A stretch of 64,000 nucleotides of DNA, taken from NCBI GenBank assembly GCA_000004985.1, contig GG738858.1; one strand, 5' to 3'. This DNA comes from Naegleria gruberi. Lineage: Eukaryota. A program made the translations under genes and the position numbers. The notes below the pieces were generated by a model. The model saw only the letters and a program-made list of their open reading frames with translations. It searched no databases and had not been told where the DNA came from. This document shows positions 15,709 to 33,594 of this stretch, one piece after another (positions within the stretch are counted from its first letter, which is position 1; each line of letters begins with the position of its first letter).

Positions 15709-16681
15709 TTATCCACAACACCCTTTCTTCCCACTTGTAGGAGAGGTGTTATTTGAAGGATTTTGAAGTTGAGATATTGGTACTAGTCCAACATTACTTG
15801 GTTTAATTTCAGAGTTTTTAGCCTTTCTTTTTTCAAATTCTTCTACAATAGTGTCAAAAATAACATCAATATTCACTCCATCCTTTGAACTTGTTACAAA
15901 ATGTTTGAATACAACTCTATGTGATGACGTGAATTCCTCTACTTGTCTTTCAGATATTACAGATTTTCCAAGATCAGATTTAGTACCAACTAGTATAATG
16001 AAACAATCCTCTGCTGGAGCACTCGTTTCCAATTTATGCACCCATTTAGAAACATTTTGAAAGGTTCCTTCCTCAATCACACTATAACAAACAAGTGCTA
16101 CATTTGTGTGACGGCAGTAGAAAGAGCTATTCCATTTGAATGAATATTTAATGAACGAATACTAACCTCAAAGAATCATATCTTTCCTATTGATGAGTTA
16201 AATGATCAAGAATTTTCAATTAGCGTCAAATCTTACCTGACCAGCTTTGATGATTGATTTAGATGAATTTTAAAGCAATTACTAACCAGTATCCCAAAGT
16301 CCTAATTCTAAATGTTTTCCGTTTTTTGTTGGAATGGCTTTCTTCAAACATGTTAATAAATTCTTTCTCTCAAATACCTACTTTAAAGAATGAAGCGCCA
16401 ATAGTGGATCTTGTATTTCCGAATGTATTATTTAAAAATCTAACCAACTTTTGATCATTGTAGATTTTTACTCGTTGATGACTTACCAAACTGATTTTTC
16501 TTAGAATATTTAAATTATTTAAAAATCATACCTGGTCTACTACAGTGTTATTGTATTTACTATTAATCCCTACCTTTCCTACACCACTGTCACCTGTTTT
16601 ATTGGTTACTCAATCAGGATTTGTTTTAAACGTACCAAGCATGACAACTTTGATGTCCACTCCTTCATTCTTTTTGCTCAT
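15709..16681 (-). CDS. Rab5-family small GTPase, multi-exon with micro-exons
   Basis: Spliced reading MSKKNEGVDIKVVMLG-DSGVGK-T-SL-LVRFLNNTFGNTRSTIGASFFKV...WDTAGQERYDSL...; the C-terminal exon is ORF 15709..16080 ending GCCG; the 5' region has five 37-42-nt GT-AG introns. Confidence 0.7.
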
Positions 16682-16691
16682 TTTTTAAAAA

Positions 16692-17513
16692 ATGTCTAAC
16701 GTTGTCTTTCATTGTTCGATAGTAAAATTGCCAGATGAAACTGTGGTTGAAAACTCCTTTGATATTGATAAACCAATACACGCCCAACTCGGAAATGGGC
16801 AATTAAAGTTTTTAGATATGGAAGAAAAACTTAGTGTGATGAATCCAGGAGAAACATGTGAGATTTTAACATTAGGAGAGGATCTTGTTAAATATAAAAT
16901 TTCCATCAAACTATTACGAAAATATTCGAGTGATGGCAATGCTACGGAATGGGATTATTCAGATGAAGAGAGCTACAATATAGCTCTAAACAAAAAAGAA
17001 GATGGCAACTTATTCTTCTCTCAAAATAAGAATATTTCAGCTTCCAGATGTTATCGAAGCGGAATTAAACATGTGAGAAGGATCTCCAAATTGAAATGGG
17101 ATTTAAATAATAGAAAGGCTAGGGATTTGTTGATCACTCTGTTCAATAATCTACTCACATGTGAGTTAAAACTTAAAAGATACTCGAATGTTGTAAAGTT
17201 TAGTACTGAATGTCTTGATAATATCGGAGAAAATGTTAAAAGTTATTACAAAAGAGGTGAGGCAAATATGAATGATGGAAATTATTCTTTGGCTAATGAA
17301 GATTTCAGAAAAGCTAAAGAGCTGCTACTCACAGTTGATTCAAATGCTGAAATTTCTGTAATCAGTAAGGTTATTACAGGCTCTCCTAAGACTATTGCAG
17401 CAGATATGTACGACAAGATGATCAAACTATTAGATTCGTCAATTCAAAAGTGCACTAAACTGGATCAAGATTACAATCAAAACATGAAAAACATGTTTAA
17501 AAAGATGTTTTAA
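16692..17513 (+). CDS. FKBP-like domain plus TPR protein (AIP/FKBP-type co-chaperone-like)
   Basis: C-terminal TPR segment KKEDGNLFFSQNK...YKRGEANMNDGNYSLANEDFRKAKELL resembles the TPR region of FKBP4/5 and AIP; N-terminal ~110 aa is PPIase-like. Confidence 0.55.
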   Translation: MSNVVFHCSIVKLPDETVVENSFDIDKPIHAQLGNGQLKFLDMEEKLSVMNPGETCEILTLGEDLVKYKISIKLLRKYSSDGNATEWDYSDEESYNIALNKKEDGNLFFSQNKNISASRCYRSGIKHVRRISKLKWDLNNRKARDLLITLFNNLLTCELKLKRYSNVVKFSTECLDNIGENVKSYYKRGEANMNDGNYSLANEDFRKAKELLLTVDSNAEISVISKVITGSPKTIAADMYDKMIKLLDSSIQKCTKLDQDYNQNMKNMFKKMF

Positions 17514-32642: not shown

Positions 32643-33594
32643 TTAAGCAATAATACAACCTCCTCCACTGCTACTTTGCGAACTGGATGACGCTGGTTTA
32701 TACTCATTCAATCCAACAAGAATTGCTGTTTGGAGAACATTTTGTAAATTATCAGCAGTATAGGCAGAGCATTCCAAATAGGCAGCAGCTTTAAGTTCCT
32801 TTGCCAGCTTTTCTCCATCTTCCTTTGTTGTTGGCACTTGTCCTTCCTTTTTGAGTTTACTCAAAGTTTCTTCATCATTTCTCAAATCTGTTTTTAATCC
32901 ACAAATAACAATTGGTGTTTTTGGAACATGTTTCTTAATTTCAGGATACCAAACAGTTTTGACGTTGTCGTAGGAATCTGGAGACACAACTGAAAAACAA
33001 ATTAAAATCACATCTGAATTAGGATAAGATAGAGGTCTCAAATTCTCATAACCCTCTAAAATAATTTTCAATCATCTCAATAAATATTTAAAAAAGTAAA
33101 TTTTTAAAATTACCTTGACCAGCAGTATCCCAAAGAGAAAGAGTCACATATTGTCTTGGTTTATACTCAACACTCGAATCACTATAAATTATTAAAAACT
33201 CTGTCCAGAGAGAGGAAAGGGAGCAAAACTTACTAATTTTCAAAAATTGTAGGAACATATTTGGCTGGAAATTCGCCTTTGGCATATCTAATTAATAAAC
33301 CTATTTAAAATATTCCAATAAATAGTTTCGAATACAATTGTTCATTGTTATTATCATCAATCCAATCAATATAATTACATCATCATTAAATTATCCAACC
33401 TCTTTGAAAACTTACAAGTCTTTCCAACAGCACCATCACCAACAGCAACACATTCTATTCGAAATATTAAACTTTGCCATCACTTTCTAATAAAACTTAC
33501 TGCATCGTTTTTCAGTATCTAGCCACACAAACCAAGGCCGAACAAGCACACATTGTCAACCACACAATGAAAAGAACAATCATCACTTACCCAT
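32643..33594 (-). CDS. Rac/Rho-family small GTPase, multi-exon (CAAX CIIA)
   Basis: Spliced reading ...[70 protein letters not shown]...CIIA; introns 52, 58 and ~117 nt; the first exon is possibly only ATGG (33591..33594), so the N-terminus is uncertain. Confidence 0.75.

Follow-up and report, generated by a model that had tools for sequence, protein, structure and literature searches.

Consecutive micro-exons of 5 and 4 nucleotides very probably encode the P-loop region of a putative Rab24-like GTPase in Naegleria gruberi

The window analysed here, a stretch of 64,000 nucleotides (nt) of Naegleria gruberi nuclear DNA (contig GG738858.1, ~33% GC) to whose positions all coordinates refer, carries on its minus strand a probable Rab24-like small GTPase gene and, on the same strand, a Rho/Rac-like gene. 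The first of these is very probably a functional, intron-dense gene that needs consecutive exons of 5 nt and 4 nt to encode the P-loop region. The two micro-exons supply Thr-Ser-Leu, which comprises the Mg2+-coordinating Ser/Thr position of the GxxxxGK[ST] motif and the start of helix α1. Reading of the minus strand from 16900 to 15600, together with scripted location of each piece, placed ACCAG at 16532-16536 and TTTG at 16487-16490 between GT..AG introns of 37, 41 and 39 nt, exactly the layout that a first-pass annotation of the window had proposed. The orthologous loci of Naegleria fowleri (L001) and Willaertia magna (L002) were compared with the window, as was the public N. gruberi model of the locus (P0001). 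The segment from exon 2 to exon 5 is arranged as follows.

16574-16593, minus strand: exon 2, 20 nt, GTGACAGTGGTGTAGGAAAG, encoding G-DSGVGK; a 20-nt exon stands here in all three species
16537-16573, minus strand: intron 2, 37 nt, gtaggg..gtagtag; wrongly read through in P0001
16532-16536, minus strand: micro-exon 3, 5 nt, ACCAG, encoding Thr23 and the first two bases of Ser24
16491-16531, minus strand: intron 3, 41 nt, gtatga..aatcag; in N. gruberi only, its boundaries also used by P0001
16487-16490, minus strand: micro-exon 4, 4 nt, TTTG, encoding the last base of Ser24 and Leu25; in P0001 too, in another frame
16448-16486, minus strand: intron 4, 39 nt, gtaagt..caaaag; position kept in N. 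fowleri and W. magna
16382-16447, minus strand: exon 5, 66 nt, LVRFLNNTFGNTRSTIGASFFK, encoding the end of helix α1 and switch I; a 66-nt exon in all three species, absent from the public model

Joining of the two pieces gives MSKKNEGVDIKVVMLGDSGVGKTSLLVRFLNNTFGNTRSTIGASFFK, which reads GDSGVGK-TSL-LVRF. The micro-exons stand in the contexts tagtag/ACCAG/gtatga and aatcag/TTTG/gtaagt, with canonical dinucleotides on both sides. The three donors (GTAGGG, GTATGA and GTAAGT) all begin with GTA and have G at +5, a pattern common to 12 of the 13 N. gruberi introns tabulated, and the acceptors are TAG, CAG and AAG. Exon 5 begins with TTGGTTAGA.. at 16447, and the stretch TTGGTTAGATTTTTAAATAAT.. belongs to it.

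Comparison of the orthologous loci showed that both encode the same Thr-Ser-Leu at the same place on a single 9-nt micro-exon, which supports the earlier proposal that the 5-nt and 4-nt exons rebuild the P-loop. The arrangement is GGAAAG/gcaagt..tgtag/ACGAGCTTG/gtaggt..tcaag/CTGGTCCGATTT in N. fowleri and GGAAAG/gtacga..aattag/ACAAGTTTA/gtaagt..ataaag/TTAATACGATTT in W. magna, and the 9-nt exon is flanked in both by exons of 20 nt and 66 nt, sizes as in N. gruberi. Within the 9-nt exon, ACCAG has its counterpart in the opening 5 nt (ACGAG in N. fowleri, ACAAG in W. magna) and TTTG in the closing 4 nt (CTTG and TTTA, respectively). The codons ACC AGT TTG of N. gruberi correspond to ACG AGC TTG in N. 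fowleri and ACA AGT TTA in W. magna and differ at third positions only; the introns on either side cannot be aligned across the three species, being of unlike length and sequence. Wobble-only codon changes together with diverged introns are the signature of a translated sequence. The public W. magna protein (P0002, ..GDSGVGKTSLLIRFLENTF..) was reproduced exactly only with the 9-nt exon included, so the public orthologue annotation already relies on that exon. Over its full length, the corrected N. gruberi protein shows 72% identity to its corrected N. fowleri counterpart and 61.5% to that of W. magna. In Acrasis kona, which is more distant, no intron interrupts the Thr-Ser-Leu site. A profile scan of metagenome contigs for closer relatives returned only homologues at 30-39% identity, and extra contigs for P0004 proved to be N. 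fowleri again (0-1 differences in 620 nt). The N. fowleri intron upstream of the 9-nt exon (L001 3166-3216) has a GC donor, GGAAAG/gcaagt..tgtag.

The possible splice paths were enumerated over every GT/GC..AG route from exon 2 to exon 5 with introns of at least 25 nt and up to four introns. Twelve stop-free in-frame products retained GDSGVGK and RFLNN. One of the twelve, the 5+4 path, gives GKTSLLVRF, and the orthologue spacing GKTSLL[VI]RF is reproduced by this path only. The other in-frame routes include the skipping of both pieces (GK/LVRF), ACCAG followed by a 13-nt exon (GKTRKISLLVRF) and ACCAG spliced into exon 5 (GKTRFLNN). The earlier statement that any other pattern loses the Ser/Thr or hits a stop was thus too strong, since several of the twelve paths keep Thr after GK. 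A contiguous 9-nt exon is not possible within the 126 nt between exons 2 and 5 of N. gruberi. When these 126 nt were subjected to 20,000 dinucleotide-preserving shuffles, ~35% of the shuffles had some GT..AG path leaving 9 nt; a P-loop-compatible [ST][STC][LIVM] was obtained in 48 (0.24%), and TSL in 4 (0.02%). The 5+4 arrangement exceeds chance. A loose window-wide scan for micro-exons (donor pattern, NAG acceptor, introns of 33-80 nt and stop-free flanks) had no discriminating power, with 333 candidates on the plus strand alone and 329-571 in shuffled sequence on both strands combined. With about as many candidates as in shuffled sequence, the splice dinucleotides alone are uninformative, and the protein-level match carries the argument.

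Skipping of both pieces would remove a single 126-nt intron (16573-16448) and give GDSGVGK/LVRF without the P-loop Ser/Thr, either from a dead or decaying gene or as a regulated inactive isoform alongside the full one (expected junctions GGAAAGTTGGTTAG and GGTGTAGGAAAGTTGGTTAGATTT). In its favour, the path keeps the frame and meets no stop, recognition of such short exons is likely to be difficult, and introns of 72-115 nt occur in the neighbouring Rho gene. However, the product would be deprived of the Mg2+-coordinating residue of every Ras-superfamily GTPase, and the exact orthologous codons with perfect splice sites would sit inside an "intron" (P about 2e-4). All eight modelled introns measure 37-50 nt, compared with the 126 nt of the skipped segment. 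Moreover, the remaining exons are all intact, and the protein has 72% identity to the N. fowleri orthologue. We consider such skipping unlikely. An even less likely path uses ACCAG together with a second exon of 13 nt (AAAAATCAGTTTG, acceptor tctaag) behind a 32-nt intron (expected junctions GGAAAGACCAGAAAAATCAGTTTGTTGG and ACCAGAAAAATCAGTTTG). This path, too, keeps the frame without a stop and retains the Thr behind GK. However, three extra residues would open helix α1, where neither N. fowleri and W. magna (GKTSLL) nor the listed Rab relatives spanning the region (GKT[SC][LI]..) have any insertion, and a 32-nt intron is shorter than any of the 25 introns tabulated.

The closest protein match to the spliced product is the public model P0001 ("rab family small GTPase [Naegleria gruberi]", 185 amino acids (aa)), the exon sequences of which are identical to the window. 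It was reproduced exactly from the window exons 16681-16636, 16593-16532, 16490-16487, 16244-16237, 16186-16167 and 16126-15709. This model reads through intron 2, uses intron 3, takes the 4-nt exon in a different frame and leaves out exons 5 and 6. That this deposited, stop-free and exactly reproducible annotation is right, with intron 2 coding (expected junctions GACCAGTTTGCTGGTCAGG and GTAGTAGACCAGTTTGCTGGTCAGGAAAG), has next to no probability, since its product GKVGINSKYNNTVVDQFAGQ is without the P-loop Ser/Thr, switch I and WDT, and 121 nt highly conserved in both orthologues are omitted. The public N. gruberi model is wrong at the Rab24-like locus, and reproducibly so, in agreement with the earlier remark that annotation pipelines miss such micro-exons. 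In N. fowleri, the model P0003 includes the exons of 9 nt and 8 nt but leaves out exons 5 and 6 as well as exon 2, which precedes the GC donor; a second N. fowleri model (P0008) is frame-shifted too. Both public N. fowleri models skip the exon preceding the GC donor and are frame-shifted, yet include the 9-nt exon. The annotation errors are traceable to identifiable causes, the micro-exons and the GC donor. With the public N. gruberi model and both N. fowleri models retrieved being wrong, Rab inventories used for reconstructing early eukaryotic membrane traffic are affected.

Several observations weigh against inclusion of the 5-nt and 4-nt exons as modelled. The skipping of both leaves the frame intact, so the reading frame alone does not compel their inclusion. 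The 5+4 split is known from one genome only, and the split itself is therefore without comparative support. At the end of intron 2 stands a tandem gTAGTAG (16537-16543, minus strand), in which the distal AG is the productive acceptor; use of the proximal AG would add an in-frame TAG stop. The searches brought to light no transcript, EST or spliced protein of N. gruberi: an exact scan of metagenome contigs with the spliced junction 26-mer GGAAAGACCAGTTTGTTGGTTAGATT gave 0 matches, and neither the full model nor its N-terminal 95 aa, used as queries, retrieved a 100%-identical spliced N. gruberi product from 5.8 billion protein clusters. A branch-site motif (nTRAY) at a fixed distance showed neither consistent presence nor a clear consensus in 25 introns. 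With introns only 4-5 nt apart, it is sterically implausible that spliceosomes assemble on them at the same time, and the sequential step set out below is inferred. The junction sequences expected from the 5+4 model are GGAAAGACCAGTTTGTTGGTTAG and GGTGTAGGAAAGACCAGTTTGTTGGTTAGATTT; RNA sequencing (RNA-seq) data of N. gruberi are on deposit as PRJEB23822 (Grau-Bove et al. 2018, PMC6142364).

Intron 3, which splits the 9-nt exon 5+4 in N. gruberi, is missing from the N. fowleri and W. magna loci. Among the three taxa, a single gain on the way to N. gruberi is more parsimonious than two separate losses; the argument rests on W. magna, which we take to be the outgroup to the two Naegleria species. 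Intron 3 is the most AT-rich of the eight introns of the gene (15% GC vs. 24-31%) and it alone among them bears a terminal inverted repeat of 8 bp (TGATTTTT/AAAAATCA; P = 0.026 by shuffling, uncorrected). The repeat could be a hint of the origin of the intron, an aid to bringing its ends together, or chance. BLAST of intron 3 against the 64-kb window detected no other copy and no repeat family, only short AT-rich chance matches, and BLAST within the window gave no sign of a duplication from introns 2 or 4. Introners, which are transposon-derived introns, occur as many near-identical copies in a genome and have terminal inverted repeats and target-site duplications. Intron 3 resembles them in being lineage-specific, compositionally unlike its neighbours and bounded by the 8-bp terminal inverted repeat. 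However, it has no second copy in the window, its repeat is of marginal significance and no target-site duplication is established. The pre-mRNA from exon 2 to exon 5 has a minimum free energy of -32.2 kcal/mol (z = -0.10), which is unremarkable overall.

In the very probable reading behind the 5+4 gene model, an ancestor of Naegleria and Willaertia already had Thr-Ser-Leu after the P-loop lysine on a 9-nt micro-exon. A further 41-nt spliceosomal intron lies within this micro-exon in the N. gruberi lineage, so that the messenger RNA (mRNA) must be assembled from ..GGAAAG/ACCAG/TTTG/TTGGTT.. The splicing machinery may recognise each ~40-nt intron as a whole, by intron definition. The introns are probably removed one after another rather than simultaneously, because only 4-5 nt lie between them and U1 would hardly fit together with the upstream 3' splice-site machinery. 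Each removal would enlarge the adjacent exon, from 5+4 to 9 nt, from 20+5 to 25 nt or from 4+66 to 70 nt.

The complete Rab24-like gene model comprises nine coding exons of 46, 20, 5, 4, 66, 55, 8, 20 and 418 nt and eight introns of 42, 37, 41, 39, 40, 42, 50 and 40 nt (range 37-50 nt), with a 213-aa product ending in GCCG. Its features outside the segment listed above are the following.

16636-16681, minus strand: coding part of exon 1, 46 nt, ATG at 16681, ending ..CTTG, encoding MSKKNEGVDIKVVML and the G of Gly16
16594-16635, minus strand: intron 1, 42 nt, gtacgt..aaacag, phase 1; split at the same position in N. fowleri and W. magna
16342-16381, minus strand: intron 5, 40 nt, gtaggt..ttgaag, phase 0; conserved position
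16287-16341, minus strand: exon 6, 55 nt, KAIPTKNGKHLELGLWDT plus G; absent from the public model
16245-16286, minus strand: intron 6, 42 nt, gttagt..tcaaag, from the gene model
16237-16244, minus strand: micro-exon 7, 8 nt, CTGGTCAG, completing Ala and encoding Gly-Gln of DTAGQ
16187-16236, minus strand: intron 7, 50 nt, gtaaga..caatag, from the gene model
16167-16186, minus strand: exon 8, 20 nt, encoding ERYDSL plus AG; N. fowleri also has a 20-nt exon
16127-16166, minus strand: intron 8, 40 nt, gttagt..gaatag, from the gene model
15709-16126, minus strand: coding part of exon 9, 418 nt, to the stop TAA, with the TKSD G4 motif and the C-terminal GCCG; equal to the C-terminal 139 aa of P0001

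Exon 1 contains ATGAGCAAAAAGAATGAAGGAG, and the N-terminus of the product agrees with those of N. fowleri and W. magna (VDIKVVMLG). FFK is followed by K, where the first-pass annotation had V; the donor is AAA/gtaggt, at the same position in both orthologues. The DTAGQ motif depends on the 8-nt micro-exon 7, which N. fowleri has in identical form (L001 3487-3494) and which does not stand as an exon of its own in W. magna. Only 10 nt separate the start codon of the Rab24-like gene (16681, minus strand) from that of a divergent FKBP/TPR (AIP-like) gene (16692, plus strand; TTTTTAAAAA, window 16679-16694), so the 5' untranslated regions (UTRs) must be tiny or overlap the coding sequence of the other gene. 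The same gene pair is spaced 139 nt apart in N. fowleri. An upstream FKBP/TPR exon overlapping the Rab 5' region was considered and rejected, as the 20 extra N-terminal residues of N. fowleri are of low complexity and the N. gruberi protein aligns from residue 3.

The 213-aa product matches the Pfam Ras family over residues 11-173 (E = 4e-44). GDSGVGKT is present only with micro-exons 3 and 4 and WDTAGQ only with the 8-nt exon, and TKSD is present. The C-terminus carries a double-cysteine prenylation motif (..KKGCCG), with the same ending in N. fowleri, W. magna and Acrasis. Among named proteins, "rab24" of Acrasis and Anaeramoeba are the nearest relatives. The N. gruberi protein and a crustacean Rab24-like protein have VD[IL]KVV[ML]LG and the unusual TKxD (for NKxD) in common; the Rab5C-like match has NKSD. 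Rab24-like and Rab5C-like proteins of animals score equally against it (119 vs. 120 bits), and no Rab24 structure was found in the PDB. Judged from its sequence, the protein is probably Rab24-like, although this is not proven. The region had earlier been described as a near-perfect Rab5 G1 and switch I; the GTPase motifs are indeed restored, but the Rab5 label probably does not hold, as the named relatives and TKxD point to a Rab24-like protein. Rab24 and Rab5 both belong to Rab group II (PMC3425129). In the "rab24" annotation of Acrasis kona (L003 2250-2340), a 19-nt exon puts GEDYLI between GQ and ERY, an insertion that looks doubtful beside the DTAGQERYDSL of Naegleria and Willaertia.

The 5' part of the Rho/Rac-like gene is organised as follows.

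33591-33594, minus strand: coding start ATGG at the 3' end of exon 1, donor gtaagt; W. magna has ATGAATG/gtacgt at the equivalent place
33519-33590, minus strand: intron 1, 72 nt, gtaagt..ggctag, from the gene model
33501-33518, minus strand: 18-nt exon ATACTGAAAAACGATGCA, giving MDTEKRCK-CVAVGDG, in agreement with the W. magna N-terminus MNEKRCKCVAIGDG
33455-33500, minus strand: intron 2, 46 nt, gtaagt..gaatag; W. magna is without this intron
33416-33454, minus strand: exon 3, 39 nt, AA-CVAVGDGAVGKT-T, from the gene model

The first-pass annotation had taken ATGG for a 4-nt first exon joined directly to AATGTG.., which gives ME-CVAVGDG. The coding start with its GTAAGT donor is supported; the direct join is wrong, as the 18-nt exon intervenes. 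With this exon, the N-terminus is MDTEKRCKCVAVGDG (MDTEKRCKC.. vs. MNEKRCKC.. in W. magna). The spliced sequences expected are AAAATGGATACTGAAAAACGATGCAAATGTGTTGCTG with the 18-nt exon and ATGGAATGTGTTGCTG by the direct join. ATGG is not a micro-exon in the splicing sense, because the first exon also carries the 5' UTR. In a Naegleria-like Rho contig (L011, 133-141; Logan SRR636569; 83% aa identity), the (G)KT(C) segment of the P-loop is carried by a 9-nt exon, GAAAAACAT, flanked by introns of 37 and 38 nt; this site is uninterrupted in the N. gruberi Rho gene.

Exons of very small size turn up repeatedly in this clade where GTPase P-loops are encoded. A broader proposal, which we hold with middling confidence, is that an intron was gained in an exon already of 9 nt, with 5+4 faithfully joined, and that Naegleria and Willaertia genes, notably in small-GTPase P-loops with ~40-nt introns, hold a hidden population of exons shorter than 10 nt that current Naegleria annotations systematically mishandle. 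If true, the clade would be a natural system for how intron-defined splicing copes with near-zero exon length. The presence or absence of an intron inside a micro-exon across three species is a clean case for intron gain and loss and for the order of removal. The main value of the locus lies in the corrected gene model, in this clean presence/absence pattern and in a warning on Naegleria annotations.

No paper on Naegleria micro-exons was found in the literature searched, and the pair was compared with short exons known from other systems. At recursive splice sites, or zero-length exons (e.g., Drosophila Ubx), a 3' splice site abuts a 5' splice site and nothing is left in the mRNA. The sequence ..tagACCAG/GTATGA likewise nearly juxtaposes a 3' and a 5' site and implies stepwise removal. 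However, the 5 nt and 4 nt must stay in the N. gruberi mRNA, and use of accAG as an acceptor would shift the frame. The closest likeness is to the 9-nt micro-exon of W. magna and N. fowleri, which shares the gene, position, phase, Thr-Ser-Leu, flanking 20-nt and 66-nt exons and short GT(GC)..AG introns; it is undivided there, whereas N. gruberi alone has it split by a 41-nt intron, and the upstream intron of N. fowleri has a GC donor. In plants, micro-exons of 1-15 nt are conserved and often misannotated, and an adjacent pair of 5 nt and 12 nt in rice has been validated (Yu et al. 2022, PMC8831610). Thus, the N. gruberi pair is not a new kind of biology, as plants have documented micro-exons as short as 1 nt and adjacent ones as well. 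The plant micro-exons are also constitutive, coding, conserved across species, part of conserved domains, and very widely missing or wrong in reference annotations, with adjacent cases among them. However, they were shown by RNA-seq and reverse-transcription PCR, whereas the N. gruberi pair is known from the genomic sequence, belongs to a heterolobosean amoeba and consists of two exons of at most 5 nt each. Exons of 5 and 4 nt lying side by side among ~40-nt introns come close to the smallest that a spliceosome has been seen to handle, in a lineage far from plants and animals. Human RPS24 has consecutive micro-exons of 3, 18 and 22 nt (PMC12207440), which are likewise very short exons in a row and hard for standard tools. 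The RPS24 exons are alternatively spliced, whereas inclusion of the N. gruberi pair is presumably constitutive and essential for the fold.

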